Positions 32,903 to 54,595 of a stretch of DNA of 64,000 bases are shown one piece after another. A model generated the notes under the pieces. The model searched no databases. It was not told the origin of the DNA and worked only from the letters and a program-made list of their open reading frames with translations. Numbering within the stretch: position 1 is the first letter of the stretch; every line of letters starts with the position of its first letter. The stretch lies in assembly GCA_045564035.1 (NCBI GenBank), contig JBJLIA010000033.1, positions 10,682 through 74,681 on the forward strand. Reading direction: 5' to 3'. This DNA comes from Gammaproteobacteria bacterium. Its GTDB lineage: Bacteria > Pseudomonadota > Gammaproteobacteria > Magnimaribacterales > D2472. The translations under genes and the position numbers were made by a program.

Positions 32903-33331
32903 TTAACCTCTATCTTTAAAATCATCTACATTGATGTCAATAGAATTAACATCTTTTGGCTGTGTAATAGTAGAGTCGTCCCAGAAAGCTCTGCCGCTGA
33001 TAATCTTGCCTCTCTCATTAATAATGAAGTGATCAACGATTGAAATATCCATTCCAGAATTATCTGCAATATTTCTAACTTGCATAACAGCTTTTAATAT
33101 TCCTTCATTAGCACAAATTATAGTCTCTACATTTGTAGGTATGATTTCCATGCCATTGCTATGTCCAAAATCCCAAAAAGCACATATTGCTTCTATGCCA
33201 TTACAAGGGTCTGCGCCAACAGGATCTTCAAATACAGCGTGATCATCCCAAAGACTTTGAAATAATTCTTTGTCATTATTTTTATATGCTAGGACATAAT
33301 TATCTAGCGCTGATTGAACTATTTCTTTCAT
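32903..33331 (-). CDS. NTF2-superfamily protein, ketosteroid-isomerase-like
   Basis: 142 aa with an LWDDHAVFEDPVG pattern typical of SnoaL/KSI-like proteins. Confidence 0.6.
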   Translation of the reverse strand: MKEIVQSALDNYVLAYKNNDKELFQSLWDDHAVFEDPVGADPCNGIEAICAFWDFGHSNGMEIIPTNVETIICANEGILKAVMQVRNIADNSGMDISIVDHFIINERGKIISGRAFWDDSTITQPKDVNSIDINVDDFKDRG

Positions 33332-33339
33332 ATTTATTC

Positions 33340-33825
33340 CTATTTTTGAATGCCCTTCTCTTTAAGGAGAATCTTAGTGAATTTTTCTTCAGGATTAATT
33401 GGGGAAACTTGCTCCCATATCCGATCGTATTCAGAATGTTGAATTAACCAGTGATCATTAATTTTTATATACTTATCTTCATATAGAGCGGTGCCTTGGG
33501 TGACACTTCCTAAATCAAAATTATAGAAAATATCCTGTAGATACCATTTACCGACAGCTTTAATTTCTGAAAGAATTTCAATCTCTGGATGATGCGCAGT
33601 ATGCATGGCAGCTGTTTGATTATGAAATGCATGTTTTAAACTTTCTTTGATAGTATCTCTCCCTTCAGATTCCCACCTGTAGGTACCACCTCGATAATCA
33701 ATTGTTATATCCAATGAAAAAACGTTGTCTAGCAAATCAAAATCAGCCATATCAATTGCCCTAAAATACCTGTGCTTTAGATTTTTGATCTCTTCGATAT
33801 CAATTAATTTTTGTAAGTTATCCAT
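33340..33825 (-). CDS. NTF2-superfamily protein, SnoaL_4-like
   Basis: IEEIKNLKHRYFRAIDMADFDLLDNVF is a typical SnoaL_4 N-terminus. 161 aa. Confidence 0.6.
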   Translation of the reverse strand: MDNLQKLIDIEEIKNLKHRYFRAIDMADFDLLDNVFSLDITIDYRGGTYRWESEGRDTIKESLKHAFHNQTAAMHTAHHPEIEILSEIKAVGKWYLQDIFYNFDLGSVTQGTALYEDKYIKINDHWLIQHSEYDRIWEQVSPINPEEKFTKILLKEKGIQK

Positions 33826-33832
33826 GCTAGCG

Positions 33833-34585
33833 TTATCTCAGATATGCTTGGCCTCCATCAAGCATGATGGTAGATCCTGTAATGTAATTCATGCCATCAG
33901 ACAAAATATGACAAACTGCCTCTCCAATATCATCTTTGCAGTCACCTACTCTTCCCAATGGTATAGTTTTGAGGAACTCATTAGCCTCAACAGGATGCTC
34001 ATTCATCCACCAATTCATCCCAGCCGACTTAGCAAGCGGCATTATACAATTTACTAAAATATTATCATGGCCCCATTCAACTGCAGCGGCTCTAGATAAC
34101 GAACGAATTGACTCTTTTACTGCTGCGTAGGCTCCATACGTATTTGAATCAGGTCTTAATGCGGAAGAGCTAGCGAGATTAATTATTTTGCCACCACCTA
34201 TTAAATGCGGATGACAAGCTTTCATAAATCGAAATGTTGCAAGGGGCCCTGAATCCCAGCCGTTCACAAAGGACTCGTCTGTAACATCAAGAATATTTCC
34301 TAAGGGTACTTCCTGTGCATTATTAATTAGAATATTCAATGAATTAAACCTTGAAAGTGTTCCTTGAACAGAGCTATGAATTGATTCAATATTTTTAACA
34401 TCACACTCAATTGCTATAGCTGATCCACCGTCTTTATTTATATCATTAGCAACAGCTTCTACTTTAGAAAAAGTTCTGCCGACCAAGCAAACATTTGCTC
34501 CATATGATGCAAGCGCTCTAGCAATTCCCTCACCAACACCCTGTCCAGAACCTGTGATTAAAGCTGTTCTATTTGAAAAGTCCAT
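33833..34585 (-). CDS. Short-chain dehydrogenase/reductase (SDR)
   Basis: TGSGQGVGEGIA, NNAQ and YAAVKES catalytic motifs. Confidence 0.85.
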   Translation of the reverse strand: MDFSNRTALITGSGQGVGEGIARALASYGANVCLVGRTFSKVEAVANDINKDGGSAIAIECDVKNIESIHSSVQGTLSRFNSLNILINNAQEVPLGNILDVTDESFVNGWDSGPLATFRFMKACHPHLIGGGKIINLASSSALRPDSNTYGAYAAVKESIRSLSRAAAVEWGHDNILVNCIMPLAKSAGMNWWMNEHPVEANEFLKTIPLGRVGDCKDDIGEAVCHILSDGMNYITGSTIMLDGGQAYLR

Positions 34586-34588
34586 TTT

Positions 34589-36298
34589 TTAAAAATTTGA
34601 TCTGGTAATATCTTTAGCAGCCAAGTAACCAAAAGTCATAGCTGGCCCAAGTGTTGAGCCTGGTCCAGGATAAGTTGGCAGTAGGGCTGTAGAACAGTTA
34701 CCGCATGCATAAAGTCCAGGTATAGCTTTGCCTTCTTTGGTTAAAACTCTAGCATTTGTATCTATTACTAGGCCTCCTGCTGTGCCCATTTCACCTGGAT
34801 AAAGAACCATGCAATAAAAGGGTCCTTGTTCAAGTGGAGCGAGGCACGGATTTGGAGTCACAGATGGATCACCATAATATCTGTCATAAACGCTATCTCC
34901 GCGATGAAGGTCAAGGTCTTTTCCTGATGCAGCATATTCGTTAACTTTTGCCTGAGTGGCCAAAAGACCATCAATATTAATACCTACAACTTCAGCCAGC
35001 TCTTCTAATGTTTCTCCCTTTGATAAAAAGGATGGAGTCCACCACTCTTTGGGAACTGCTGAGTCGGGTTGCATAGAGGCCTGCAGAAGAGGTCCGCATG
35101 GTCGATTTTTTCTAAATGTACTATCAAAAATCATATAACATGGTGCACAAGGATTGCCTTCAGCATATTTATCAAACATATCATTTACAAAGCTGACATA
35201 ATTTTGTGATTCATTTGAAAACCTTTCGCCATTTTTATTAACAGTGAAATTTCCAGGCATTGACTTATCTACCATTGATAACCAGCCTTTATCCTGACCT
35301 GGTACTTTCATAACTGTAGACCACCAACCTGTGTCCATTTGGTGTGTGTCAGCTCCCAATCTTAAAGCCGCCTTTAAGGCATCACCTGTGTTATGAGTAT
35401 TGGCAGCGCTCCATTCTATATTTGTTGGTTTCGGTAAATATTGATCTCTTAAGTTTTGATCTTTTTCAAATCCACCGGATGCAAGAATTACACCTTTATT
35501 AGCTTTAATATTTATTTCAATATTTTTTTGAGTAGCTTTAATACCTATAACTGAGCCATTGTCATCTATAAGATCGGTCATGGAAGTCTCTGACCACAAA
35601 TCTACATTCCTATCTTTCAAGGATAAAATCAACCTTGCCACGCCAGCATTCCCCATGGTCAGCCTTCTATCTTTCCATCCCCACTTAAGTCTCATCGGTA
35701 TGTCTAATATATATTTAGTAAATAATTTGGCGAACTGAGTTTTCCATCCTGGAAGTGCTCCTAGCAGTAACTGACCTTCTACCTGAGTAAAATTCATATT
35801 AATAGGTCCCATTGTAAAAGCTGTTTGGGGATGTTGCTCTCTTAATCTCCCGAGATCATCTCCAAGAATAGTTCCATTGATTGGTTCTGGTTCCATAGAT
35901 CTATTGCCTGCCTTTCCTCCAGGATTATCAGGGAAATAATCAGGATAATGAGCTAAATTTCTATATTTAACTTGTGAATTTTCATGCAGATAGTCCACCA
36001 TTTTTGGACCTTCTGAAAGATAGGTTTCTATGAGCTCATCCTTGATCTTTCCTGGGGGCGAGACGCTGTTGATATAGTTTCTTGCATCTTGATCTGAATC
36101 ATCTACATTTTTAGCTTTGGCATACCTATTATTAGGAATCCATACACCCCCACCAGAGGTTGCTGATGTACCTCCAAATTGAGTACTTTTTTCTATAACC
36201 AAAGTTTTTGCGCCACCATCATGACTGCAAAGAGCTGATGTTAAGGCACCATTACCAGAACCAATAACAACTACGTCAAATTCATAATCCCATTTCAT
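34589..36298 (-). CDS. FAD-dependent dehydrogenase, 3-ketosteroid-delta-1-dehydrogenase / fumarate-reductase-flavoprotein-like
   Basis: FDVVVIGSGNGALTSA dinucleotide motif, ASGGFE, and C-terminal GLYACGNC..GPG typical of the KstD-like family. 569 aa. Confidence 0.75.
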   Translation of the reverse strand: MKWDYEFDVVVIGSGNGALTSALCSHDGGAKTLVIEKSTQFGGTSATSGGGVWIPNNRYAKAKNVDDSDQDARNYINSVSPPGKIKDELIETYLSEGPKMVDYLHENSQVKYRNLAHYPDYFPDNPGGKAGNRSMEPEPINGTILGDDLGRLREQHPQTAFTMGPINMNFTQVEGQLLLGALPGWKTQFAKLFTKYILDIPMRLKWGWKDRRLTMGNAGVARLILSLKDRNVDLWSETSMTDLIDDNGSVIGIKATQKNIEINIKANKGVILASGGFEKDQNLRDQYLPKPTNIEWSAANTHNTGDALKAALRLGADTHQMDTGWWSTVMKVPGQDKGWLSMVDKSMPGNFTVNKNGERFSNESQNYVSFVNDMFDKYAEGNPCAPCYMIFDSTFRKNRPCGPLLQASMQPDSAVPKEWWTPSFLSKGETLEELAEVVGINIDGLLATQAKVNEYAASGKDLDLHRGDSVYDRYYGDPSVTPNPCLAPLEQGPFYCMVLYPGEMGTAGGLVIDTNARVLTKEGKAIPGLYACGNCSTALLPTYPGPGSTLGPAMTFGYLAAKDITRSNF

Positions 36299-36470: not shown

Positions 36471-37601
36471 ATGAAAACTGATATTTGTCAAAAACTTGGT
36501 ATTGAGTATCCTATTTTTGCTTTTACTCATTGCAGAGATGTTGTTGTTGCGGTTAGTAAAGCTGGAGGAATTGGCGTTCTTGGAGCTGTAGGTTACTCTC
36601 CAGAACAACTTAAAGAAGAGCTTGATTGGATCGACGAACATATTGGAGATTATCCATATGGTGTAGATACAGTTATTCCTCAGAAATATGAAGGAATGGA
36701 TGAAAAAGATCCTGAGCAGTTGCTAGAATCACTGCAAAAAATGATACCCGATGGACACAAAGAATTTGTTGAAGGTCTATTAAGTGATAATGGCGTGCCA
36801 GAAGCTCCAGAGACTAATGGTCCCAAAGGTGGTTTGCTTGGATGGACAGAGGCAACAGCAGAGCCCCAAATTGATGAGGCCTTAAAGCACCCAAATGTGA
36901 AATTAATTGCTAATGCCTTAGGCACTCCTCCTGCTGATATGATCAAGAAAATCCAAGACAAAGGTGTGCTGATAGGTGCATTGTGTGGAAAGATCAAACA
37001 AGCAATGGCGCACAAAGACGCTGGATTGGATTTCATCATTGCCCAAGGTGGTGAAGGGGGAGGTCATACCGGTGAGATAGGAAGTATTGTGTTATGGCCT
37101 CAAATTGTAGATGCCGTTGATGGCTTGCCTGTTCTTGCTGCAGGTGGAGTTGGGAATGGAAGGCAAATGGCTGCAGCGATGTCTAGTGGCGCTCAAGGTG
37201 TGTGGTGTGGTTCATTGTGGCTGGCTGTTGAAGAAGCTGCGGCGCAACCAGCTGAAAAAGATTCTTATTTAAATGCAACTAGCGAAGATACAATTAGAAG
37301 CAAGGCGTGGACAGGTAAACCTGCACGAATGTTAAAAAACAAATGGACAGAAGCATGGGAAAATCCTGATAATCCAGATCCTCTTCCTATGCCGCTTCAG
37401 GGCATGATTACCTTTGACGCTATGAGAAGAACGTCGATATATGCAGGATCAGGAAATACACAAGATGTTTCATTTAATGCTGCTGGTCAGGTCATTGGTC
37501 AAGTCAAGCAGATTGAATCAGTAAAAGATGTGATCTATAGAATAATTAATGAATATCTTGATTCGGTTGAAAGACTGAACTCCTTACTTCCAGAAGAATA
37601 G
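36471..37601 (+). CDS. Nitronate monooxygenase-family FMN oxidoreductase
   Basis: IFAFTHCRD, AQGGEGGGHTG and AAGGVGNGRQMAAA motifs of the NMO/2-nitropropane dioxygenase family. Confidence 0.8.
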   Translation: MKTDICQKLGIEYPIFAFTHCRDVVVAVSKAGGIGVLGAVGYSPEQLKEELDWIDEHIGDYPYGVDTVIPQKYEGMDEKDPEQLLESLQKMIPDGHKEFVEGLLSDNGVPEAPETNGPKGGLLGWTEATAEPQIDEALKHPNVKLIANALGTPPADMIKKIQDKGVLIGALCGKIKQAMAHKDAGLDFIIAQGGEGGGHTGEIGSIVLWPQIVDAVDGLPVLAAGGVGNGRQMAAAMSSGAQGVWCGSLWLAVEEAAAQPAEKDSYLNATSEDTIRSKAWTGKPARMLKNKWTEAWENPDNPDPLPMPLQGMITFDAMRRTSIYAGSGNTQDVSFNAAGQVIGQVKQIESVKDVIYRIINEYLDSVERLNSLLPEE

Positions 37602-37793: not shown

Positions 37794-37796
37794 AAA

Positions 37797-39098
37797 TTAA
37801 TTAATTTCCTTGAAATCAGATGAATAATCCTGAACCAGGTAAACAAATGCCTTGAGTCCATTTGAAAGAGCTGAATCATCAACATAAAAAAATGGTGAAT
37901 GGTTTGATGGGCTTTCATCAACGCCGGGTGCGTTAACACCAAGGAAGAAAAATAAGCCTGGAACTTGTTGAGCATAAAATGAAAAATCTTCAGCTCCAGT
38001 CCTTGGCACTCTTGCTTCAAAAAAATCTCCTTCAGTAGCTTCTATCAATGAAGATGAGTACTTTGTAGTGAGGCCTTCATCATTAAAGGTTACAGGATAA
38101 CCTCCATAAACCTTGAACTCAGCCACAGCGGTAGCATGATGAGCGGCTGCAACATTTTCAGCAATAAGTTTGATTTCTTCTCTTATTTGATCTGCAAAAG
38201 AATCTTTAAATGTTCTAATAGTACCTTCTAACATCGCTGAAGCCGGTATGATATTATTTCTTGTTCCAGCTTTCATAATTCCAACTGTAACTACTGCTTG
38301 ACTCTCTAAAAGATTCAATCTTCTACTTACGATTGTTTGCAAGGTTGAGGCGATATCAGATGCTGCAATGATTGGATCAACTCCACTCCAAGGTCGCGAA
38401 CCATGAGTTTGTTCACCTTGCACAGTTATTCTGAAAGCTTCCGCTGACGCCATAATTGGTCCAGGTTTTGTCCAGATTTGGCCATTTTTAAAATTTGATA
38501 CATGCATTCCAAAAATAGCATCTGGTTTTTCGGCCTCAAAAAGACCTTGTTTTAGCATTAATTCAGCTCCGCCCTCTTCACCTTCAGGAGCGCCCTCTTC
38601 GGCCGGTTGAAATATTAATAAAATATCTCCGTTTAGCTTATCGGTATTTCTAGAAAGAAAACTAGCCACTCCAAGCAACACTGCTATGTGTGAATCATGA
38701 CCGCACGCATGCATTACTCCAACTGCATTGCCTTGATATGTTGTTTTAACTTTCGAAGAAAATGGAAGATTAAGCATTTCAGTAACAGGCAATCCATCAA
38801 TGTCTGCTCTTAGTGCAATTAATGGACCTGGATTTTGACCTCGAATAAATGCGGTTACACCAGTAATGCCATATTCTGTGTTGGGCACCAAGCCCATTTC
38901 AGTCAATGCTTCCGCTATTGATTCTTGTGTTTTATATTCTCTGTTTGAAAGCTCTGGATACTGATGAAAATGGTGCCTCCAGTCTGTCACTTTTGTCATG
39001 AGTCCTTGCAGCTCTTGATCCAATTGATTTTTTAGGTCTTGTGCTAATAAAGGCTCTATCAATAGCATAAAAACACTTAATATAAATAACCTTCTCAT
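37797..39098 (-). CDS. Secreted M20D-family amidohydrolase (aminoacylase / hippurate hydrolase-like)
   Basis: Signal peptide MRRLFILSVFMLLIEPLLAQ, MHACGHDSH metal motif and FQPAEEG. Last gene of the F420 operon, 3 nt after the DUF1295 gene. Confidence 0.85.
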   Translation of the reverse strand: MRRLFILSVFMLLIEPLLAQDLKNQLDQELQGLMTKVTDWRHHFHQYPELSNREYKTQESIAEALTEMGLVPNTEYGITGVTAFIRGQNPGPLIALRADIDGLPVTEMLNLPFSSKVKTTYQGNAVGVMHACGHDSHIAVLLGVASFLSRNTDKLNGDILLIFQPAEEGAPEGEEGGAELMLKQGLFEAEKPDAIFGMHVSNFKNGQIWTKPGPIMASAEAFRITVQGEQTHGSRPWSGVDPIIAASDIASTLQTIVSRRLNLLESQAVVTVGIMKAGTRNNIIPASAMLEGTIRTFKDSFADQIREEIKLIAENVAAAHHATAVAEFKVYGGYPVTFNDEGLTTKYSSSLIEATEGDFFEARVPRTGAEDFSFYAQQVPGLFFFLGVNAPGVDESPSNHSPFFYVDDSALSNGLKAFVYLVQDYSSDFKEIN

Positions 39099-39101: not shown

Positions 39102-39980
39102 CTAACCTTTTTTAAAAACATTTATAAAAATTGCAGGAGTTGAATCCATGTATTCTTTAAAATCTGGGCGTCTTTCCAATGATCGTTTGTCCATCATTGA
39201 AACAGATGCAATGGCTATTAAAAAATACATGATAAGAGTTCCTATAAGGAGCCACAAAAATGAAAGATTGGAGGCTAGGGCAAAAATAAATAGACTAAAC
39301 CAAAATAAGATCTCTCCGAAGTAGTTAGGATGGCGGGAGTAGTACCATAATCCTGATTTCATAGTTTGAGGCTCACGAAGATTTTTTCTAAAGTTATACA
39401 TTTGTTGATCTGAAATGATTTGAATCACAACAGCTAAGACTGCTATGACGGCAGCTAGAAAATCTAAACTATTTAATTCAGAGCCTGGATAAGCAAGGGT
39501 ATAAATCATTGGTAGTAATGCCATATAAACACAAAGGGTTGGAATCAGATGTATCGAGCCAAAATCAACAATGAAATATTGAAATTTATTATTTGTTTTA
39601 CCTTTCATCATGATGTATCGCCAATCCTCGTGAGAGAAACCATCCCACGACCTCATCCAGTTATAAGTTAATCTAATTGCCCAAAACAATAAACATGCAT
39701 GCATCAACAATGCTCTTTGACTATTTCCAACAGCCGATATATCAGACCAACATAAGACTGTAAGAACTACAGGAATAACAGACCAAAAGGCGTCATACCA
39801 ACTTGAATTATTAAAACAAGTACTAAGAAAATAAATAAAGATTGTTGCCTCAACATGACATATTAAAACTTTTAAAATTAATGATGATTCTGGGAATAAG
39901 TTCCACGTAAGATTCATCGAGTAAATACAGGCTATGTAGCCAATAAAAATTACTGCAAGGTGAGCTAGTTTGTTGTTCAT
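39102..39980 (-). CDS. DUF1295 / steroid 5-alpha-reductase-like polytopic membrane protein
   Basis: YSRHPNYFGEILFW C-terminal motif and multiple TM segments. The start ATG overlaps the fbiC stop (ATGA at 39977..39980). Confidence 0.75.
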   Translation of the reverse strand: MNNKLAHLAVIFIGYIACIYSMNLTWNLFPESSLILKVLICHVEATIFIYFLSTCFNNSSWYDAFWSVIPVVLTVLCWSDISAVGNSQRALLMHACLLFWAIRLTYNWMRSWDGFSHEDWRYIMMKGKTNNKFQYFIVDFGSIHLIPTLCVYMALLPMIYTLAYPGSELNSLDFLAAVIAVLAVVIQIISDQQMYNFRKNLREPQTMKSGLWYYSRHPNYFGEILFWFSLFIFALASNLSFLWLLIGTLIMYFLIAIASVSMMDKRSLERRPDFKEYMDSTPAIFINVFKKG

Positions 39981-44672: not shown

Positions 44673-45305
44673 TTAGTGACCAGTGATCTTAATGCCTGAA
44701 TGGGCCAATGAGTGCTTTTTATTAATGGCGATAAGTATTGAAGTTAAGGCTTCAGCTGCAACTGAATTGCATAAAGGTCCAGCATGCCATCCTGTCAGAC
44801 CAGCATCGGCTGCTAATTTAATTACGATATTTCTTGCATCAATTAAATCACCAGCAACCAAGACATCACAATCTATGTCGGCATCAGTTTGAAGTAATTC
44901 AGCTGAAATATTTTGAAAAGCAGATATCACAGTAGTATTTTCACCTAAAATTGATTGAGCATTTAATGCAGCAGAGCCAATTTCAGGCAGTTGCACTCTC
45001 ATAACTTTTGGAGGCATCAATGGCACAGTTGCATCAATCATTATCTTATTATGCAAAGCATCATCAATACTTGAGAGCGTTGATTCTTGATGGGCAAATG
45101 GCACTGTTAAACAAGCAAGTTCGCAGGCTTTAGCTGCATCAAGATTTAACATCCCCGCTGAACTATCCATACCTAATTGGACTGCAATCTCATGAGCCTT
45201 ATCTAGATCACGACTGCCTATAAGGACATCATGTCCAGCTTTAATCCATCTTGAGGCCAACCCTTTCCCCAAAGAACCTGTTCCTCCTAGAATAGCTATT
45301 TTCAT
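44673..45305 (-). CDS. fno: NADPH-dependent F420 reductase (Fno/NpdG)
   Basis: MKIAILGGTGSLGKGLASRW..GSRD Rossmann start typical of NpdG. 210 aa. First gene of the F420 operon. Confidence 0.85.
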   Translation of the reverse strand: MKIAILGGTGSLGKGLASRWIKAGHDVLIGSRDLDKAHEIAVQLGMDSSAGMLNLDAAKACELACLTVPFAHQESTLSSIDDALHNKIMIDATVPLMPPKVMRVQLPEIGSAALNAQSILGENTTVISAFQNISAELLQTDADIDCDVLVAGDLIDARNIVIKLAADAGLTGWHAGPLCNSVAAEALTSILIAINKKHSLAHSGIKITGH

Positions 45306-46219: not shown

Positions 46220-47742
46220 CCAAATAGCTTTCTTACCAATCTATTTCCCCAGAATATTTTTAACGCGCCTTTAAGTTGCTCGAATGATTTATCAGTATAG
46301 GGATAGGCTGATGCAGATTTTTTGCCGATGATAATTGGCATTGGATGAGCATATGCTAATAAGCCCTCCTTTCCATTTACTACGCCGAGACCACTTTCTT
46401 TTACGCCGCCAAATGGTACTTCATTGACTCCATAACTCATTGCCATATCGTTGACAGAACATGCGCCCGTCTCAATTGATTTGGCTAATCTTTGCCCTTT
46501 AACCAAATCTTTAGTCCAAACATTTCCATTTAAACCATAATGAGACTGGTTAGCGAGCATTAATGCCTCATCTTCAGACTGAACTTTCATAATAGAGATA
46601 ATTGGTCCAAAGGTTTCATCTTTCATGATCTTCATTTCATGAGTAACCTCAACTAGAACAGTGGGTTCAAAATATAGACCTTCAAAATTAGGGTTTCTTT
46701 TTCCACCAACTAATACCTTAGCCCCTTTTGCAACAGCATCATTGACATGATCTTCAATGATGTTGATTTGTTTATCCCAAAAAGTAGGTCCTACATCGCC
46801 TTTGCAGTCATTTGATTGGATTAGTGACTGGGTTATAGATACAACTTCCTCAACAAACTGATCATAGACCTCATCCATAACATAAATTCTTTCAGTACCG
46901 CAGCAATATTGACCTGCATTCATGCATGAACCAACAACTGCCCCACTTGCCGCATCCTTAATATCAGCATCAGAGCATACAATCATTGCATCTTTACCAC
47001 CTAGCTCAAGGCTATAGGGAATAAGCATTTCTCCACATTTAGCTGCAATCTTCTTTCCAGTAGTAACACTGCCTGTGAAAGATACTTTATCTGGGGCACA
47101 ATCAATTAACTCAGCACCTGTCTGACCATCTCCAATGACTGTCTGAACTAAATGTTGCGGAGCCTCCGCTAATGCAAAAATCTCCTGAACCAATGCTCCG
47201 GACATAGGTGTAACCTCAGATGGTTTTACCACCACACTGTTTCCACAAAGAACTGCCTGTATAACTGGATTGATGGAAAGTATGAAGGGTCCATTCCAGG
47301 GAGTAATAACAGCCACAACACCTCTTGGCTTGTATGTGATGATAGTCTTTTTAAGAAATTGCATAGGGCCGTGCATCTTGATTTTTTTATCTGCTAACCA
47401 CTTTTGAGCTCTTTTGGCATAAAACACTAAAGAATCTACAGCTGAAAATACCTCCATAGCCATAGCTTCTTGCTCTGGTTTGCCAGTTTCTCTCATAACA
47501 ACATCCATGATTCTGTCTTGCTGCTGAATTACAACATCGGCCACCCTATGCATTAATTCAACCCTTTCTTTTAATGTTGTCTTCTTCCATTCACTTTGTG
47601 CAACTTTAGCTTGCGTCATGATTGTTGAAATCTCTTCAGTTGATGTGCATTCATAAGTATCGATATGCGAAAGATTAACTGGGCTTTTTAAGGTTAATAG
47701 TTTTTTGCCGCCCTCAGAATGAGAAATAGAAAAAATAGCCAT
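46216..47742 (-). CDS. NAD(P)-dependent aldehyde dehydrogenase
   Basis: ELGGKDA, NAGQYCCGTERIYV (catalytic Cys) and FTGSVTTGK motifs. Confidence 0.9.
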   Translation of the reverse strand: MAIFSISHSEGGKKLLTLKSPVNLSHIDTYECTSTEEISTIMTQAKVAQSEWKKTTLKERVELMHRVADVVIQQQDRIMDVVMRETGKPEQEAMAMEVFSAVDSLVFYAKRAQKWLADKKIKMHGPMQFLKKTIITYKPRGVVAVITPWNGPFILSINPVIQAVLCGNSVVVKPSEVTPMSGALVQEIFALAEAPQHLVQTVIGDGQTGAELIDCAPDKVSFTGSVTTGKKIAAKCGEMLIPYSLELGGKDAMIVCSDADIKDAASGAVVGSCMNAGQYCCGTERIYVMDEVYDQFVEEVVSITQSLIQSNDCKGDVGPTFWDKQINIIEDHVNDAVAKGAKVLVGGKRNPNFEGLYFEPTVLVEVTHEMKIMKDETFGPIISIMKVQSEDEALMLANQSHYGLNGNVWTKDLVKGQRLAKSIETGACSVNDMAMSYGVNEVPFGGVKESGLGVVNGKEGLLAYAHPMPIIIGKKSASAYPYTDKSFEQLKGALKIFWGNRLVRKLFG

Positions 47743-47744: not shown

Positions 47745-48815
47745 TTATAACTCCTTAAGTTTTGATTCAAGCATGGGTGTTACATGATTATTGATATGAG
47801 CATTCATTCCCATTGGCATAATTTCATAATGCTCTAGTTTTCTTACAACCTTGACCATAATAACGGTAAATTTGTATAGAGCTAAAATATAGTAGTAATC
47901 AAAATCATCTGCACTAAATCCAGTAAGAGCTTCCCATTTAGCAATGGTTGCTACTGGTCCAGGAAAACCACTTAATCTTTCAACATGAACTCCTTTTGAG
48001 TTGCAATCATCAATAGCTATGCCCCAAGCAAGATCCATACAAGGATCTCCAAGCGAAGCCATTTCCCAATCTAAAACAGCTGAAACTTGCCCATCAGGAT
48101 CATACATAATATTTGCACACCTACAATCTCCCCAAAGAATTGAAGATTGAGTGGGCTTAGGCTTGTTGACCTTGAGCCATTCCCTCGCTTGATCAGCAAC
48201 TGGATGTGCCTCACCTTCCATAGCCCAATCGTGAAAATTAAAATAATAATTTAACTCTTGATCAAGATAATCTTCTGAAAGCTTTGGTCTATTAAGAAAT
48301 TCAAAATCTCCATTTGATATATCTACTTGGTGAACTTTAGCCATTTGCTCAACCCAACCCCACCAAATTCTTTCTCTTACATCTTCAGAGGAATCGGCTA
48401 CCCATCCCTCTTGATGAAATGGAGGATTGTCAGAGGGAGCATCGCCACTAGCCATTTCCATAACATAAAACGATGTCCCAAATACCTCATCGCTAGGTTC
48501 GTACCACAGTACATTAGGCACTTTGATATCATGATCAGCTAATTTCTGCATAATCAAAAATTGCTTATGAATGTCATAGTCTGGAAATACAAAAAATCCT
48601 TCAGGATAGAATCGCAGAACCATTCCAGTATTAATTTTTGCGCCATCTAATTCATATGAAACATTGAAACTTAATGTTTCATTTGAGAAACCTGTATTCT
48701 CAGGGCCTCCTAATAATTTGACATCTAGGTCAGTGGCTCCATCTAATTGCGCATCAAGCCAGGCAGTAAAAATTACTCTAGTTTGATCTAAATCTCGTTC
48801 TTGTGGCTTCGGCAT
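47745..48815 (-). CDS. Phosphotransferase-family kinase (APH / choline-kinase-like fold)
   Basis: WGDCRCANIMYD catalytic loop and VLDWEMASLGDP motif. 2 nt upstream of the ALDH gene. Confidence 0.8.
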   Translation of the reverse strand: MPKPQERDLDQTRVIFTAWLDAQLDGATDLDVKLLGGPENTGFSNETLSFNVSYELDGAKINTGMVLRFYPEGFFVFPDYDIHKQFLIMQKLADHDIKVPNVLWYEPSDEVFGTSFYVMEMASGDAPSDNPPFHQEGWVADSSEDVRERIWWGWVEQMAKVHQVDISNGDFEFLNRPKLSEDYLDQELNYYFNFHDWAMEGEAHPVADQAREWLKVNKPKPTQSSILWGDCRCANIMYDPDGQVSAVLDWEMASLGDPCMDLAWGIAIDDCNSKGVHVERLSGFPGPVATIAKWEALTGFSADDFDYYYILALYKFTVIMVKVVRKLEHYEIMPMGMNAHINNHVTPMLESKLKEL

Positions 48816-48882: not shown

Positions 48883-49965
48883 ATGGCTGATTTATTTAAA
48901 GAAAAATGGGATGCATTTTGCGAAAACCTTAAAGACGTTGGGTCAATTATTGAATCAGAATCTGCGCTAAATGAAACAGACCAAGCTGAAGGATACAGAT
49001 ACTTGCTTCGTTTAATGCGTTTATCATTAGAAATGAATTTAGAGCATTCCAATCCATCTACGCCATCTTTTTATAATCTTTCCCATGAAACTGCAAAAAT
49101 AGGTGCTGATAATCCAGATAATATTTATTTAAATGCAAACATAGATGGAAGACAATCTTACGAAATCTACGGAAATGTTGGTGAATCAAACTATTTAAGC
49201 TTTGGTTTAAAAGAAAATAGATATAGCAAAGATGGCACTATGATTTCTTTGGGTGAAATTGATATGCGAGATATGACGGTGGATGCCTCAGGAGATTTTA
49301 TTTTATATCTTGGTAATCAAGGTGAATCTAAAAATTTTTTACCACTTCCTAAAAATGCCAACATGCTAATTGTTCGTCAAACCTATGAAAATAGAATCTC
49401 TCAAACTCATGCAAAAATTAATATTAAAACTACAAGTTCACAAGCTACGCCTGAACTTTTAACCCCCACTAAACTTGAAACACAACTTAATCAATCTCTT
49501 GCTTTCGTTAGCGGAACTGCATCAACTTTTGTTAAGTGGGTGCACGAATTTAAAAATAATCATAGGAATCAATTGCCAATGGGCGATCAAGCTTTTTTTC
49601 AAGCAGCCGGTGGGGATCCTAAGATTTGTTACCTTCATGGTTATTATGACTTTTGCAAGGATGAATATTTGGAAATCACAACCAATGTTCCTGATTGTGA
49701 GTATTGGAATTTTCAGTTAGAAAATTATTGGATGGAATCTCTGGATTATCGTCATTACCCCATTCATATAAATAAATCATCGGCTATTCTTAATAGCGAT
49801 AACACTCTAACCATCAATGTTAGTCACCATCACATTAATATGGAAAATAACCTTATAACTGAGGGTCGTAACAATGGAGCTATGCTTCTTCGGTGGATTG
49901 GAGCAAGTACATATCCAATCCCAACAGTAGAAATAAAAAAACTTGATGCCTTGGAGGTTAACTAA
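48883..49965 (+). CDS. Conserved hypothetical protein, DUF1214-like
   Basis: DQAEGYRYLLRLMRLSLE and GADNPDNIYLNANIDG patterns recalled from DUF1214 proteins. Assignment from memory only. Confidence 0.4.
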   Translation: MADLFKEKWDAFCENLKDVGSIIESESALNETDQAEGYRYLLRLMRLSLEMNLEHSNPSTPSFYNLSHETAKIGADNPDNIYLNANIDGRQSYEIYGNVGESNYLSFGLKENRYSKDGTMISLGEIDMRDMTVDASGDFILYLGNQGESKNFLPLPKNANMLIVRQTYENRISQTHAKINIKTTSSQATPELLTPTKLETQLNQSLAFVSGTASTFVKWVHEFKNNHRNQLPMGDQAFFQAAGGDPKICYLHGYYDFCKDEYLEITTNVPDCEYWNFQLENYWMESLDYRHYPIHINKSSAILNSDNTLTINVSHHHINMENNLITEGRNNGAMLLRWIGASTYPIPTVEIKKLDALEVN

Positions 49966-51104
49966 TGCTAGATTCTTCAGCAATAAAAAGTGAGGCTAAA
50001 AAGCAAACTAATTTAGAAAATTTTGGTAATCCATTATTTTTGAAAGGATTTGAAAGTCTGGTTCAATCAATCAATCATGAGGCAGACTTAAATAATATTG
50101 GCTTAGAAGCACAAAAACATAGGTTAACCGGTGTATTGGCTAATTTACTTCTGATTGAGGAAGCTTGCATCAAACATCCAGAGATACTCAATGAAGAAAT
50201 TAATTCTCCTGTTGTAATTGTCGGTCTTCCAAGAACAGGAAGCACTATGACCCACAGGCTTCTTGCCTCTGATCCAAGGCATACTGCAATGCTTTGGTGG
50301 GAAGGAAGATATCCAGCCATGCTAAATGATGAAATTCGAGGCAATCCACAAGAACGCATGGAAATGGGAAAAGCTGAAGTTGAAGCAGTAATGCAAGCCT
50401 CACCTGAGGCGCTAACTATTCACCCTTGGGATTACAAGGGTGCAGATGAAGAAATATTACTTTTAGAACATACATTTTTTAGCACAGTTCCAGAATCCTT
50501 TATGCGGCTCCCCTCTTATTCTCAATGGGTCGAATCGCAGGATCATATTCATGCATATGCTCAGCTAAAAAAAATGCTTCAATATCTTCAATGGCAGAGT
50601 CCCGGAAGAGAAGAAAAAAGATGGGTTTTAAAATCGCCTCATCATCTTGGCTTCATTGATAAACTATTAGAAATTTTTCCAGATTCAAAAATTATACAAA
50701 CTCATAGAGACCCATTGAAAACAGTTCCATCATTTTGCTCAATGTGTGCGAATTTATTTGAGCCTCTCACAAACACATATGATAAAAATGAGATTGGCTA
50801 TCATTGGGCTCATAAGTTAGCCAAAGTATTAAATCATTGCATGAAAGTGAGCAATGAAAATAAAGATAATTTCCTCAATCTTGAATTTAATAAAATGATT
50901 AAAGATCCTATTTTGGAAATGAAGGAGATTTATAATTTCATTGGTGAAGATTTTACTGATCAAACAGAAAATGCAATGAATGCCTGGAATGAAGAAAATC
51001 AACATGAGATGGGCGCCCATCAATATTCACTTGAAGAATTTGGATTGGAGAGTTCATTCATTGATAATTACTTTCATGAATATACGAATCAATATATAAA
51101 ATAG
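49965..51104 (+). CDS. Sulfotransferase-family protein
   Basis: GLPRTGSTMTHRLL (5'-PSB loop) and THRDPLKTVPS (3'-PB) motifs. The start overlaps the stop of the upstream gene by 1 nt. Confidence 0.75.
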   Translation: MLDSSAIKSEAKKQTNLENFGNPLFLKGFESLVQSINHEADLNNIGLEAQKHRLTGVLANLLLIEEACIKHPEILNEEINSPVVIVGLPRTGSTMTHRLLASDPRHTAMLWWEGRYPAMLNDEIRGNPQERMEMGKAEVEAVMQASPEALTIHPWDYKGADEEILLLEHTFFSTVPESFMRLPSYSQWVESQDHIHAYAQLKKMLQYLQWQSPGREEKRWVLKSPHHLGFIDKLLEIFPDSKIIQTHRDPLKTVPSFCSMCANLFEPLTNTYDKNEIGYHWAHKLAKVLNHCMKVSNENKDNFLNLEFNKMIKDPILEMKEIYNFIGEDFTDQTENAMNAWNEENQHEMGAHQYSLEEFGLESSFIDNYFHEYTNQYIK

Positions 51105-51112
51105 GAACTAAA

Positions 51113-51889
51113 ATGTTATTAAAAGATAAGGTGGTAATTGTTTCCGGTATTGGACCAGGTTTAGGTCAAGAGCTTGCTTATGGTGCTGCTAGAGAAGGTG
51201 CAAAAATTGCAATAGCCGCAAGATCTACTGACCTGCTTAACAAACTTAAAAATGAAATTGGTAAAAAATCAGATGTAATCGCAATTCCGTGTGATATAAC
51301 CAACCCTGAAGACTGCAAAAATTTAGTTGAAGAAACGGTAAAGAAATATGGGAAGCTTGATGGGTTAATTAATAGCGCCTATCGTGCTGGTGATTTTAAG
51401 GAAGTTAAAGATTCTGATTTTTCTGATTGGCAGGAAACTATGAACACAAACTTTTTTGGAACTATGAATCTCACAATGGCTGCAGTTAAGGAGATGACTC
51501 CAAATCAACAAGGTGCAATCGTAATGATCAACAGCCTTATAACTAAAAAGCCACTCCCGACGCAAGGCGGATATGCAGCATCAAAAGGTGCTCTTGCAAC
51601 TGCAACTAAAATTCTTGCAAAAGAACTTGGGCCAAGTGGAATTAGGGTTAATTCAGTCTATATGGGATGGATGTGGGGTCCACCTGTTGAAATGTATGTA
51701 AATTTTACTGCTGACTCTATGGGTGTTGAACCAAAAGATATTATTGGGGGAGTTACTAAAGACATTCCATTGGGAATTATTCCTGATGATGCAGATTGTG
51801 CAAATGCTGCATTATTTCTAATCTCAGATCTCGCAAAAGTTATTACTGGGGCTAACTTAGATGTAAATGGTGGAGAATTTATGACATAG
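51113..51889 (+). CDS. Short-chain dehydrogenase/reductase (SDR)
   Basis: SGIGPGLG and YAASKGA catalytic motifs, with a DVNGG C-terminus. Confidence 0.85.
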   Translation: MLLKDKVVIVSGIGPGLGQELAYGAAREGAKIAIAARSTDLLNKLKNEIGKKSDVIAIPCDITNPEDCKNLVEETVKKYGKLDGLINSAYRAGDFKEVKDSDFSDWQETMNTNFFGTMNLTMAAVKEMTPNQQGAIVMINSLITKKPLPTQGGYAASKGALATATKILAKELGPSGIRVNSVYMGWMWGPPVEMYVNFTADSMGVEPKDIIGGVTKDIPLGIIPDDADCANAALFLISDLAKVITGANLDVNGGEFMT

Positions 51890-51989: not shown

Positions 51990-52862
51990 ATGGCAATTAA
52001 TAAAGATATTCATACTGTTGATCTGATGCTTGGTATCCCTGAGCAAGAAGATAGATCTGATTGGTATACATTCATGGAACCTCTTCTTCGTGATGAGGAA
52101 TCTAAATCTATGTTTAAGATGCCTGCTCAATATATGTTTAAAGATATCCCGGAAACTGGGTCGCATGATGACTTTATACAATTCACTATTGAGCAAATGG
52201 ATAAATTTCATATTAATCAAGCAATGATAGGATTTCATGAGAAGTCCGAAGTAAAAGTTGAGGCTGCAAAAAATCATACGGATAGATTTATTTTTGATTT
52301 ACCAGTGAATCCTAATATAGAAAATGAAGCCGAAAACATAAAAAGACATTACGAGACATATGGCATTAAAGCTGTGAGTGCTTTCCCCTCCGGGTTGTAC
52401 CCTCAAGTTGCAATCAATGATCCAAAATGGCATTCGATATATGAGATGTGTGTTGAGTTAGACATACCTTTTTTCTGTTGTGTTGGAGTGCCTGGACCCA
52501 GAATTCCCATGGCTCCTCAAAAAGTTGAACTAGTCGATGAAGTTTGTTGGTATTTTCCTGAGTTAAAGTTCGTTATGCGGCACGGAGCAGAGCCTTGGAC
52601 AGCTCTGGCTTGCAAACTAATGCTCAAGTATCCTAATTTATATTATTCAACGAGTGCATTTTCACCAAAACATTATCCTAAGGACATTATTAATTTTGCT
52701 AATACACGTGGGAAAAATAAAATAATGTACGCAGGATATTTCCCCATGGGTTTATCTTTGGATAAAATTTTTGGCGAGATGGATGATGTGCCTCTAAAAG
52801 ATGATGTATGGCCATTATTTTTAGGAGAGAATGCTAAAAGAGTGCTCAAGTTAGGGATATAA
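51990..52862 (+). CDS. Amidohydrolase_2 (ACMSD/LigI-like) metal-dependent hydrolase/decarboxylase
   Basis: 290 aa with a TIM-barrel hydrolase pattern: VDLML start region, FVMRHGAEPW, and a YF tail with ENAKRVL. Confidence 0.65.
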   Translation: MAINKDIHTVDLMLGIPEQEDRSDWYTFMEPLLRDEESKSMFKMPAQYMFKDIPETGSHDDFIQFTIEQMDKFHINQAMIGFHEKSEVKVEAAKNHTDRFIFDLPVNPNIENEAENIKRHYETYGIKAVSAFPSGLYPQVAINDPKWHSIYEMCVELDIPFFCCVGVPGPRIPMAPQKVELVDEVCWYFPELKFVMRHGAEPWTALACKLMLKYPNLYYSTSAFSPKHYPKDIINFANTRGKNKIMYAGYFPMGLSLDKIFGEMDDVPLKDDVWPLFLGENAKRVLKLGI

Positions 52863-52893
52863 TTAAAACCACAAAAAAAAATTACCACAGACT

Positions 52894-53859
52894 ATGACTG
52901 AAAAAATAAGATATTCAATGTTGCAAATTCCATTTGGCTGGTACGTTGTTGACTATTCAAATGAACTCAAGCCCGGAGAGGTCAAAGCGGTGCGGTATTT
53001 TGCGCAAGATCAAGTGCTATTTAGAACTGAGTCAGGCGAAGTAAGTATGTTGGATGCTTATTGCCCTCATTTGGGCGCTCATCTAGGTCACGGTGGGATC
53101 ATAAATGGTGAATGCATTGAATGTCCTTTCCATGCCTGGAGATGGAAAACAGATGGAAAGATTGGTGAAATACCTTACGCTAAAAATATTCCTCCAAAAG
53201 CCAAAGAAACTAAAATATTTACTTACCCTACAGTAGAAAGAAATAATCTTATCTATGCTTGGTATCACCCTAACGGAGAAGAGCCTCACTATGAAGTTGA
53301 AACCTATCCAGAAATTAATGATCCTGAGTGGGGAGATGAATTTGAAAAATTTGAATATCGCATAAAATGTCATATTCAGGATATGGCAGAGAATGCTGTT
53401 GATGCTGCCCATTTCATGTATGTGCATGGAGTTGCCTCATATCCAGAATTTGAGGTCACTTACAAAGACCAAAAAAGATTTTTTTACCAAAAAGCAGACA
53501 TGGTTACCCCTAGGGGCACTGTAAAAGGCAAAATATCAGGAGCCTCTAATGGACCTGGAGATAACTTTACGAAGTTTGAAGGTATATGTGACACCCTATT
53601 ATTAGGCTCAACTACTCCAACTGAAAATGAAGAAGTCATAACAAGATTTTCTTTTCTGCAGAAAAAAGTTAATGGGGAAGTTCCAACTGGCGGTGTCGGT
53701 GCCGCTATTATTGCGGATATAAATAAGCAAGTTAGAGAAGACATTCCAGTGTGGGAAAATAAACAATATGCTTCTAAACCAGTTCTTTGCGATTCAGATG
53801 GTCCAATTGCTAAATTTAGAAAGCATTTTGCAACCTTCTATACTGATCAAAAGCAGTAG
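52894..53859 (+). CDS. Rieske [2Fe-2S] non-heme-iron oxygenase, KshA-like
   Basis: Rieske motif CPHLGAHLGHGG..(16)..CPFHAWRW and mononuclear iron motif NAVDAAHFMYVH. Confidence 0.85.
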   Translation: MTEKIRYSMLQIPFGWYVVDYSNELKPGEVKAVRYFAQDQVLFRTESGEVSMLDAYCPHLGAHLGHGGIINGECIECPFHAWRWKTDGKIGEIPYAKNIPPKAKETKIFTYPTVERNNLIYAWYHPNGEEPHYEVETYPEINDPEWGDEFEKFEYRIKCHIQDMAENAVDAAHFMYVHGVASYPEFEVTYKDQKRFFYQKADMVTPRGTVKGKISGASNGPGDNFTKFEGICDTLLLGSTTPTENEEVITRFSFLQKKVNGEVPTGGVGAAIIADINKQVREDIPVWENKQYASKPVLCDSDGPIAKFRKHFATFYTDQKQ

Positions 53860-53917
53860 ATGCCTTACTAAGCCATCAAACTAAGAGAGTAATTATTTTA
53901 TCCAGCCTATTTTGATA

Positions 53918-54412
53918 TTAGCTTTTTAGGATAAACAAGATATTTTCCTCTAATAAAGTCACTGGACTCATGCCAACTTGTTCAAAGTTGAGCTTTGGTG
54001 ATTCTTCAATCCTTCCAATTTCTTCCTTGTATCTATAGAAAATAATGGTTGGGGTTTTTTTTATCTTTAAAATTACACCTCTGTTCTCAGGTTCATTCTT
54101 TTGATAATTTAAACCTATCAATGAAATCAACTCAGGTTTTATGTTGATGTCTTCAAGAAGTCTTAATAATTTTGGTATTTCCCTTTGACTATCATGACAC
54201 CAGGTTCCAAATAGAACTTTAAGGCTTATGCCATCAAGATCTAACTTTTCATCTGAGCTAAGAGGCTCAGCATCAAGATAATTTTGATGAAATTTTCTGT
54301 GAGTTGAAAAAAGTTCATCTTTTGAAATATCACCAACTAACATTAAATTAGTTGACCCAAGAATTGGGAAACTTATAAATAGAGCTAAGCAAAGGTTTGT
54401 AACTTTATTCAA
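53918..54412 (-). CDS. Exported thioredoxin-fold protein with monothiol WCHDS motif
   Basis: Signal peptide. FGTWCHDSQREIPKL sits at the position of the WCxxC motif. 164 aa. Confidence 0.5.
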   Translation of the reverse strand: MNKVTNLCLALFISFPILGSTNLMLVGDISKDELFSTHRKFHQNYLDAEPLSSDEKLDLDGISLKVLFGTWCHDSQREIPKLLRLLEDINIKPELISLIGLNYQKNEPENRGVILKIKKTPTIIFYRYKEEIGRIEESPKLNFEQVGMSPVTLLEENILFILKS

Positions 54413-54424
54413 AATTATTAAACC

Positions 54425-54595
54425 CTAGGAATCTATAGGCTCAAAATCAAACTTACTTACGCCACATTCTGGGCAAACCCAATCATCAGGAATGTCCTCC
54501 CATTTGGTTCCAGCAGGTATGCCGTCTTCAGGGTCGCCTAGTTCCTCATCATAGATATATCCACATATTACGCATTCATATTTCTTATACTGCAT
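54425..54595 (-). CDS. Rubredoxin (56 aa; below the ORF-track size cut-off)
   Basis: My translation of the minus strand is [56 protein letters not shown]. It has both CxxCG knuckles. The ATG lies inside the last codons of the upstream transporter gene. Confidence 0.9.

Follow-up and report, generated by a model that had tools for sequence, protein, structure and literature searches.

Steroid-type oxidoreductase genes surround the F420 operon at a vertically inherited locus of SAR86 gammaproteobacteria

Why should a marine gammaproteobacterium keep genes resembling those of steroid catabolism on both sides of an operon for the cofactor F420? The question is raised by a stretch of 64,000 nucleotides (the window; positions 10,682 to 74,681 of contig JBJLIA010000033.1, assembly GCA_045564035.1), which has a G+C content of about 35% and belongs to a SAR86 (Magnimaribacterales) gammaproteobacterium, not to an actinobacterium. 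A preliminary description of the region at 32.9-54.6 kb, made from the letters alone, had proposed a module for polycyclic or hydrophobic substrates that uses F420 and may have come from actinobacterial systems. Our analysis confirmed the observation itself, the steroid-type character of the enzymes and their persistent linkage to the F420 operon, whereas a recent import from Actinobacteria was not supported. We favour, at about even chances, the reading that an ancient, vertically inherited SAR86 locus encodes here a pathway for breaking down steroid-like rings, with F420H2 as the would-be donor for one reductive step.

The prediction that SAR86 catabolizes steroids is not new and was made in both 2016 and 2024. 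In the survey of Bergstrand et al. (2016), each of the three draft genomes of SAR86 was classed as that of a steroid degrader, and SAR86 genomes, including that of SAR86E, were scored as having six or more out of eight key steroid-nucleus enzymes genome-wide (PMC4810484); SAR86E also carries a locus of the window type (L023). Freel et al. (2024) reported steroid side-chain β-oxidation as widespread in SAR86 and ring-degradation genes in few genera (PMC11582366). Because kstD and kshA are counted in three genus columns only of their KEGG table (PMC11582366), the KstD-like and KshA-like genes studied here were evidently not scored. F420 is not mentioned in Bergstrand et al. (2016), Freel et al. 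(2024) or Dupont et al. (2012), and full-text literature searches for SAR86 together with F420 or deazaflavin returned nothing relevant. A 2021 review treats the role of F420 in Proteobacteria as an open question and mentions neither steroids nor Gammaproteobacteria (PMC8498797). The linkage to F420 and the coupling of fbiC to a DUF1295 gene, both described below, appear to be new in the literature searched.

Outside the region, the translations read as common gammaproteobacterial housekeeping genes, among them the his genes in an operon, fabD/G/F, holB, tmk, rne, metG, pdxJ and grxD. Within it, the open reading frames are densely packed, and oxidoreductases make up about 14 of 22 genes, as against 3-4 of about 40 in the remaining window. 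Pfam, NCBIfam and PDB searches of the window proteins gave the following family assignments.

32903-33331, − strand: SnoaL_2 / NTF2-fold protein, candidate ketosteroid-isomerase-like (Pfam SnoaL_2, 30.8 bits)
33340-33825, − strand: SnoaL_4 protein, BaiE/7α-hydroxysteroid-dehydratase-like (Pfam SnoaL_4, 85.8 bits)
33833-34585, − strand: short-chain dehydrogenase/reductase (SDR), candidate hydroxysteroid dehydrogenase (Pfam adh_short)
34589-36298, − strand: KstD/AcmB-family FAD_binding_2 flavoprotein, 3-ketosteroid Δ1-dehydrogenase-like (PDB 7p18, 469 bits)
36471-37601, + strand: NMO-family FMN enzyme, FabK/enoyl-reductase-like (Pfam NMO, 163 bits)
37797-39098, − strand: secreted M20 amidohydrolase, aminoacylase/hippurate-hydrolase type (Peptidase_M20; TIGR01891, 320 bits)
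39102-39980, − strand: DUF1295 membrane protein, steroid-5α-reductase/ICMT superfamily (Pfam DUF1295, 148 bits)
39977-42391, − strand: FbiC (fused CofG-CofH), FO synthase (NCBIfam CofG and CofH equivalogs)
42396-44626, − strand: cofC, cofD and cofE (Pfam CofC, CofD and F420_ligase)
44673-45305, − strand: Fno/npdG, NADPH-dependent F420 reductase (NCBIfam npdG)
45449-46219, + strand: second SDR oxidoreductase (NCBIfam PRK07856, above cut-off)
46216-47742, − strand: aldehyde dehydrogenase (ALDH; Pfam Aldedh)
47745-48815, − strand: APH-like kinase (Pfam APH; PDB 3ats)
48883-49965, + strand: DUF1214-like protein, 360 aa (PDB 6ans, 281 bits)
49965-51104, + strand: Stf-type sulfotransferase (Pfam Sulfotransfer_3, 140 bits)
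51113-51889, + strand: third SDR (profile search)
51990-52862, + strand: Amidohydro_2 protein, hydrolase or decarboxylase of the ACMSD/LigW superfamily (Pfam, 75.9 bits)
52894-53859, + strand: KshA-like Rieske non-haem-iron oxygenase, 321 aa (Pfam Rieske and KshA_C)
54425-54595, − strand: rubredoxin (Pfam Rubredoxin, 85.7 bits)

Every domain named in the preliminary description was recovered by these searches, with the exception of one gene at the right edge of the window, and two genes that it had not listed were added, those for the M20 amidohydrolase and the DUF1214-like protein. Profile searches also agreed with its statement that no helix-turn-helix regulator, CoA ligase, thiolase or TonB receptor lies within 32.9-54.6 kb. 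The truncated right-edge gene (63484-64000) had been called an EthA-like Baeyer-Villiger monooxygenase; it gave no Pfam or NCBIfam match and matched only proteins named 'NAD(P)/FAD-dependent oxidoreductase', at about 50% identity. This result agrees with the monooxygenase call without establishing it, and identifies the gene as no more than a generic FAD/NAD(P) oxidoreductase fragment.

The steroid-type character of the left part of the region is clearest in the KstD-like flavoprotein, which matched AcmB (7p18) over its full length with 469 bits and Rhodococcus KstD1 with a far lower 271 bits. AcmB is the cholest-4-en-3-one Δ1-dehydrogenase of the betaproteobacterium Sterolibacterium. The full-length alignment to AcmB shows that the PDY Tyr, the NxxxY Tyr and the YPGPG Tyr/Gly are kept, which we take to correspond to the catalytic-base Tyr, the two further Tyr and the backbone Gly of the family (Tyr119, Tyr318, Tyr487 and Gly491 of KstD1) and to their AcmB equivalents. 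As an observation apart from its function, ocean data contain this gene in great abundance: its product falls in a 90%-identity cluster with 1315 member sequences, and upwards of 110 other clusters that are at least 77% identical come nearly all from marine metagenomes.

In the same operon, the SnoaL_4 protein had as its nearest PDB structure BaiE (4l8o; 84 bits, about 40% identity over 150 residues), and its YFRAID and MHTAHH segments align with YFRCLD and MHMGH of BaiE, in motifs (YFRxxD and MHxxH) that presumably hold the catalytic Tyr, Asp and His. Like BaiE of Clostridium scindens and the Hsh2-type dehydratases, this protein unites the SnoaL_4 fold and the aligned Tyr/Asp/His with an operon that contains a KstD-family gene and an SDR; unlike in those systems, there are no bai genes or CoA-ligase partner and the host is an aerobic marine oligotroph, and the likeness is one of sequence only. 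The first SDR has orthologs of 55-56% identity after KstD in three loci of sister SAR86 lineages (L079, L109 and L111, described below), and it scored 113 on the NCBIfam 7α-hydroxysteroid dehydrogenase model, below the cut-off of 350. The SnoaL_2 gene is the last of the operon, lies 14 nt upstream of pdxJ and has an ortholog that likewise follows SnoaL_4 in L109; no close characterised homologue of its product was found.

Divergent from the KstD operon, the NMO gene encodes a protein that no other in the region matches in conservation (90-97% identity across SAR86 species) and is absent at the equivalent position in L109 and L111. Its assignment as an IpdC (Rv3553-type) ortholog was considered and found unsupported, with 27% identity to the NMO protein of a sphingomonad cluster. 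The M20 amidohydrolase, which scored above the TIGR01891 cut-off and has an N-terminal hydrophobic leader read from the sequence, is specific to the window-type clade. RNA structure was not significant in the KstD/NMO intergenic region, and scans for promoters and terminators across 32-52 kb were uninformative, since shuffled sequence yielded more sites.

In the right part of the region, the KshA-like protein matched the Pfam families Rieske (74.6 bits) and KshA_C (97.5 bits), and its nearest PDB structures were KshA5 (152 bits), KshA1 and M. tuberculosis KshA, in a range of 112-152 bits. Its segments CPHLGAH..CPFH, DAAHFMYVH and EDIPVW align with the KshA ligands (CxH..CxxH, H-x4-H and Asp). 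The window encodes no KshB-type reductase, only the rubredoxin and a TrxR-type FNR (28172-29215); by proximity only, the rubredoxin is a possible electron carrier for the oxygenase. Between the Rieske and rubredoxin genes, an open reading frame at 53918-54412 (− strand) encodes a 164-aa protein with an N-terminal hydrophobic leader, one WCxxS-like motif and no Pfam match. The Amidohydro_2 gene, the product of which has the uncharacterised BB4693 as its sole PDB relative, still adjoins the Rieske gene in another SAR86 locus (L022).

The genes for the DUF1214-like protein, the sulfotransferase and the third SDR form a three-gene run (48883-51889, + strand). The sulfotransferase matched the mycobacterial Stf1/Stf9 structures 2zq5 and 2z6v with 136-138 bits over residues 9-375, and a GLPRTGST 5'-PSB loop can be read from its sequence. 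The DUF1214-like protein had no Pfam match above threshold and a strong likeness to the uncharacterised 6ans, and its homologues are annotated DUF1214. In M. tuberculosis, the cholesterol gene set as published includes, near kshA, the F420-dependent oxidoreductase Rv3520c, Stf1 (Rv3529c), the SDR Rv3530c, the hypothetical protein Rv3531c and the NMO protein Rv3553 (PMC6429209, PMC8882603), so the family constellation has an actinobacterial counterpart. The run in the window, like Rv3529c-Rv3530c-Rv3531c, places an Stf-type sulfotransferase beside an SDR and a hypothetical protein, near a KshA-type oxygenase. Going by the M. tuberculosis gene order, the DUF1214-like protein and the third SDR may be the counterparts of Rv3531c and Rv3530c, respectively. 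Further left, the APH and ALDH genes form a two-gene operon that is conserved in the window-type clade and was not seen near the locus in L111; the APH protein is closest to M. tuberculosis Rv3168 (3ats, 147 bits). The second SDR gene is divergent from fno, and an ortholog of 54% identity holds the same divergent position in L111.

Judged by their closest characterised homologues (AcmB, KshA5, BaiE and Stf1/Stf9) and with catalytic residues intact, these enzymes are of steroid type, as had been proposed. Four unrelated folds, those of KstD/AcmB, KshA, BaiE and Stf1, therefore point to the steroid nucleus, and they do so by similarity and not by membership, since equivalog thresholds were missed and cyclohexanecarboxylate desaturase models also score well. 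The locus is like the aerobic 9,10-seco degradation genes known from Proteobacteria and Actinobacteria (KstD/TesH, KshAB and HsaA-D; PMC4810484) in having a KstD-family flavoprotein with its catalytic residues and a KshA_C-type Rieske protein with its ligands, together with SDR and NTF2-fold partners, and like the M. tuberculosis cholesterol region and sphingomonad plasmids in its NMO, sulfotransferase and DUF1214-like accessory genes.

Several findings weigh against our reading, beginning with those that concern the substrate. Unlike 9,10-seco clusters, the locus has no regulator, and the 64 kb of the window contain no gene for a KshB-type reductase, HsaAB, HsaC, HsaD, a CoA ligase, a thiolase or side-chain degradation. 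With 321 aa, against about 385-395 for KshA, the Rieske protein is a shortened version that lacks about 45 C-terminal residues of KshA and is distant from it in score. No steroid-type gene passes an NCBIfam equivalog cut-off; the KstD-like protein scored 529.7 on PRK07843 (cut-off 788) and 517 on PRK12844 (cut-off 789), and KstD-family models for 4-oxocyclohexanecarboxylate desaturases reached 313-363 bits on it. All of this would suit a functional catabolic island for non-steroid alicyclic or hydrophobic substrates, such as terpenoids, rings of the cyclohexane-carboxylate type, products of carotenoid or chlorophyll breakdown or carboxyl-rich alicyclic molecules, with the steroid names reflecting which family members have been studied. 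The KEGG-based survey, which did not count these genes as kstD or kshA in most SAR86 genera, fits such an island as well, and the sphingomonad loci that carry these families are themselves uncharacterised. We nevertheless regard such substrates as unlikely: the four families pointing to the steroid nucleus are independent and catalytically intact, the likeness to AcmB is strong and spans the whole protein, and SAR86 genomes, that of SAR86E with its window-type locus among them, scored highly for steroid-nucleus enzymes.

The F420 genes gave firmer matches. The operon has the order fno-cofE-cofD-cofC-fbiC, with fno first and fbiC last, and the NCBIfam cut-offs were passed by the CofG and CofH domains of FbiC (476.6 on TIGR03550, cut-off 213; 499.3 on TIGR03551, cut-off 374) and by Fno/npdG (184.5 on TIGR01915, cut-off 149.8). 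CofC, CofD and F420_ligase scored above their Pfam cut-offs, cofC, cofD and cofE being contiguous or overlapping, and CofE is a single-domain protein without the FbiB nitroreductase domain. The presence of the full cofC, cofD and cofE together with fno indicates that F420 is made, and not FO alone. The start of the DUF1295 gene overlaps the stop of fbiC by 4 nt, and DUF1295 directly follows fbiC in all SAR86 lineages seen. Its product also had weak Pfam matches to Steroid_dh (24.9) and ICMT (21.8), and an AlphaFold2 model (pLDDT 90) gave ICMT (5vg9) and SRD5A2 (7bw1) as its only PDB fold matches, about equal, with TM scores of 0.36-0.45, a result that favours neither an NADPH-dependent reductase nor a SAM methyltransferase of this superfamily.

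Proteobacterial F420 operons contain fbiC, npdG/fno, cofE, cofD and cofC and often a luciferase-like oxidoreductase (LLM) (Ney et al. 2017, reviewed in PMC8498797). The window operon resembles them in its fused FbiC, its single-domain CofE and Fno as the only F420-reducing enzyme. Unlike them, it belongs to a streamlined marine gammaproteobacterial host, is chromosomal and vertical across at least 27 species loci, ends with fbiC translationally coupled to DUF1295, has lost the operon LLM and is embedded among steroid-type genes; unlike any described steroid cluster, in turn, the locus has its genes flanking an F420 biosynthesis operon. Among the best non-self FbiC representatives are forms of 950-1016 aa, one of them annotated as FO synthase from the alveolate Chromera velia, which hints that SAR86-type and algal FO synthases may be related.

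Is the region native to its host? FbiC was scanned with one genome per species, and the 27 SAR86 species loci obtained were compared with all window proteins. FbiC was 57-89% identical in these 27 genomes, nearly all of which are labelled SAR86 and which include SAR86E and a complete SAR86 chromosome; the next match outside them was a Spongiibacteraceae contig (L028) at 46%, in which a GntR-type gene, not DUF1295, lies downstream of fbiC. The gene order from rnt to the third SDR was kept almost everywhere in the 27 loci, even in the most divergent genome, and the Rieske gene was likewise kept wherever the locus extends that far (L022). The association of steroid-type and F420 genes is therefore persistent and not a quirk of one genome. 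Across SAR86 species, the KstD-like protein (91-95% identity), NMO (93-97%) and ALDH (91-96%) are better conserved than FbiC (76-89%), so that the oxidoreductases are more conserved than the cofactor genes. When codon usage was compared between the 22 region genes and the 40 other window genes, the log-likelihood per codon was indistinguishable (p=0.57), and GC3 was 0.267 in the region versus 0.245 in the housekeeping genes; the window list of open reading frames contains no integrase, transposase or tRNA. Codon usage, the conserved locus and the absence of mobility genes indicate that the region is native and vertically inherited, and a horizontally acquired island was rejected on its native composition, its synteny in 27 of the 27 SAR86 loci retrieved and the same lack of mobility genes.

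These results bear directly on the acquisition from Actinobacteria suggested earlier, which in any recent sense conflicts with the SAR86 host, the native codon usage and the vertical inheritance next to pdxJ. A recent lateral transfer of an actinobacterial island into a gammaproteobacterium would explain why the top PDB matches of the sulfotransferase, the APH protein and the KshA-like protein are mycobacterial or rhodococcal, and F420 with a fused FbiC is classically actinobacterial. We consider it very improbable all the same. Besides the native codon usage and GC content, the locus has descended vertically within the SAR86 order without changing its place on the chromosome. FbiC is closer to alpha- and betaproteobacterial homologues (47-52% identity) than to those of Rhodococcus, Nonomuraea and Paenarthrobacter (41-45%) or Streptomyces (35%), and among 1.8 billion representatives its identity outside its own cluster does not exceed 53%. 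The gene content of the F420 operon is of the proteobacterial type and equals that of other Proteobacteria, and the KstD-like protein is closest to the betaproteobacterial AcmB. From the FbiC identities, the operon content and the KstD affinity, nothing points to an origin in Actinobacteria that is recent or specific; the resemblance to actinobacterial proteins is in part a product of the PDB, which is biased to M. tuberculosis targets and holds many of their structures.

The sister lineages, with FbiC only 50-54% identical to that of the window, show how far the linkage extends. On three contigs (L079, L109 and L110; 35% G+C), the KstD-like protein is 66% identical to that of the window, and the genes run cofC, esterase, LLM (opposite strand), fbiC, DUF1295, Rieske (opposite strand) and KstD. 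Beyond KstD come a zinc alcohol dehydrogenase (ADH), SDR, SnoaL_4 and SnoaL_2 and then, before pdxJ is reached, a TonB receptor and two more genes; Rieske and KstD therefore directly abut fbiC-DUF1295. In L111, a SAR86 metagenome-assembled genome (MAG), the order is SDR, fno, cofE, cofD, cofC, LLM, fbiC and DUF1295, and then an unrelated five-gene insert, Rieske, KstD, a β-lactamase-fold gene, ADH and SDR. The LLM of these lineages (L079, L110 and L111) scored 164.8 on the F420-dependent model TIGR03619, just below the cut-off of 166.9, and the L111 ortholog is named TIGR03619-type F420-dependent by NCBI. The shared pdxJ anchor indicates one ancestral locus that was rearranged internally without dispersal. 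By this comparison, the window clade has lost the LLM and has acquired two genes, M20 and NMO, that separate DUF1295 from KstD; its Rieske gene lies on the other side of the F420 operon.

Some peculiarities of the sister loci deserve mention. In L110 (2842-5258), FbiC is called as two genes, of 351 aa (no Pfam match) and 446 aa (CofH type), which reflects a real separation of CofG and CofH or else a frameshift. In L111 (1-2720), upstream of its F420 operon, a 505-aa TPR-plus-sulfotransferase protein and an SDR replace the APH, ALDH, DUF1214 and Stf genes of the window, placing a sulfotransferase of another architecture in a similar position. A metagenome scan with a sister-lineage KstD (P0120) returned one close relative and soil KstD homologues without the accessory genes.

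Outside SAR86, the same families recur both with and without F420. On plasmid pNL2 of Novosphingobium aromaticivorans, homologues of six window proteins lie within 30 kb, without F420: the DUF1214-like protein (40%), the sulfotransferase (34%), the KstD-like protein (38%), the SnoaL_4 protein (45%) and two SDRs (40-42%), with TonB receptors, MFS transporters and further NTF2 proteins in the same stretch. Homologues of the DUF1214-like, Stf and third SDR genes thus co-localise there with a KstD-family gene. As an independent instance of the pairing, a megaplasmid of the marine alphaproteobacterium Croceicoccus marinus carries fbiC-npdG-cofE-cofD-cofC-LLM (TIGR03619) about 3 kb from NTF2-NTF2-KstD-family-SDR, its KstD-family FAD oxidoreductase being 36% identical to the window KstD-like protein; further LLMs, a Rieske protein, an extradiol-dioxygenase-type protein, a hydrolase and a CoA ligase lie nearby. 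On a metagenome contig (L120), a second independent instance, a TIGR03619-like LLM stands beside a FAD_binding_2 protein and a Rieske oxygenase. An LLM homologue of Pseudomonadales (L119) lies in a housekeeping context. On pMSHV of Sphingobium herbicidovorans, the DUF1214 gene borders a block of β-oxidation, NMO and CoA-transferase genes. A megaplasmid of the tomato-root Sphingobium sp. TomMM7A (L115, 13938-30238) has fbiC without nearby cofC, cofD or cofE, directly upstream of a block of acyl-CoA dehydrogenase, thiolase, MaoC, SDR and PaaY genes that also flanks the DUF1214 gene on pMSHV (L113, 16567-31044), and the TomMM7A and pMSHV megaplasmids carry six copies of KshA-like short Rieske genes.

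Does the persistent linkage mean that the module uses F420? We know of no F420-dependent step in steroid catabolism, and the flanking enzymes all have cofactors of their own (FAD, FMN, NAD(P) or Fe-S). The window encodes neither an LLM nor an FDOR/PPOX F420H2-using oxidoreductase, and the 27 close SAR86 loci contain no LLM homologue; because Fno is the sole recognisable F420 enzyme of the window lineage, we infer any use of F420 by the module. Within close SAR86, moreover, synteny is weak functional evidence, since the housekeeping neighbours pdxJ, grxD, bfr (ferritin-like) and rnt are as syntenic as the region across the 27 loci, pdxJ and grxD belonging to the same strand run, in which they are spaced by only 14 nt and −1 nt. 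The sister loci show retention and not independent assembly, and in the SAR86 MAG FRAM18_bin297 (L019) the KstD block does not adjoin the F420 block. The F420 operons on plasmids of Leisingera, Paraburkholderia and Aromatoleum lie in unrelated contexts, so that, with Croceicoccus and L120 on the other side, the pairing of F420 with KstD-family genes is recurrent but not general.

The equally syntenic flanks, the separated blocks of L019, the unrelated contexts of other F420 operons and the absence of an F420-dependent client, together with the tolerance of L111 for an unrelated insert, are what one would expect of an incidental neighbourhood. In that case the oxidoreductases and the F420 operon would be core genes with no functional tie, never separated in the streamlined, highly syntenic SAR86 genomes, and F420, or FO alone, would serve some other purpose, such as a photolyase antenna pigment, general redox or detoxification. 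This explanation is possible, although we place it on the unlikely side. The adjacency survives at an FbiC identity of about 50% despite rearrangement, with the Rieske and KstD genes abutting fbiC-DUF1295 there; Croceicoccus, of a different class and on a plasmid, pairs an F420 operon with NTF2-KstD-family-SDR; the full gene set points to F420 and not to FO alone; and fbiC and DUF1295 overlap. In L019 itself (14600-22391), the M20 gene is followed, in place of the NMO/KstD block, by a different island with two GST-like genes, a fumarylacetoacetate-hydrolase-family gene, a gene for a TonB-dependent receptor of 822 aa, and one extradiol-dioxygenase-like and one nitroreductase-like gene.

For the steroid-ring module that we prefer, we infer from sequence a substrate class and an order of steps. 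The substrates would be the A/B rings of steroid-like alicyclic compounds, for example phytoplankton sterols or bile-acid-like molecules. The SDRs would oxidise ring hydroxyls to ketones, the SnoaL_2 protein would shift a double bond, and the AcmB/KstD-like flavoprotein would then introduce the Δ1 double bond. The BaiE-like SnoaL_4 protein could next remove the 7-hydroxyl to give a Δ4,6-dienone, after which the short KshA-like Rieske protein would hydroxylate the ring system, with electrons arriving perhaps through the nearby rubredoxin. Accessory steps may fall to the DUF1214-like/Stf/SDR trio, the APH and ALDH pair and the amidohydrolase, whose homologues are likewise found with KstD-family genes in sphingomonads and in the cholesterol region of M. 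tuberculosis.

In the same scheme, Fno would charge F420 from NADPH, and F420H2 would drive a reductive step of the pathway. The client in the sister SAR86 lineages would be the TIGR03619-type LLM inside the operon; in the window lineage, which has no LLM, the leading candidate is the DUF1295 protein, given the translational coupling of its gene to fbiC. The more specific proposal, that F420 is a core trait spent on a reductive sterol or alicyclic ring step by the LLM or, in the window lineage, by DUF1295, is a speculative one to which we give a low probability. If true, it would for the first time give F420 a physiological role in Gammaproteobacteria and steroid catabolism a step that depends on F420, and it might add a cofactor specificity that is new to the SRD5A/ICMT superfamily.

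SAR86 accounts for several percent of surface-ocean bacteria. It has been proposed to feed on membrane lipids and sterols (PMC11582366). The link between the F420 operon and steroid-type enzymes offers a concrete hypothesis both on the role of F420 in Proteobacteria and on SAR86 feeding, and the hypothesis is testable because a cultured SAR86 isolate exists (Magnimaribacter mokuoloeensis HIMB1674). KEGG-threshold surveys missed KstD-like and KshA-like genes that are present in at least 27 SAR86 species representatives, and this very old gene arrangement may hint at the role of F420 in such bacteria.

Two further features lie outside the region. An open reading frame at 4965-6836 (+ strand, 623 aa) reads, from its translation only, as a HisD-HisB fusion (histidinol dehydrogenase and imidazoleglycerol-phosphate dehydratase). 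Immediately right of the region, a signalling cluster (56480-62823) encodes a TonB C-terminal-domain protein, a 992-aa hybrid histidine kinase with a receiver domain and a response regulator of one domain, as well as a HisKA-REC-GGDEF and an EAL protein.

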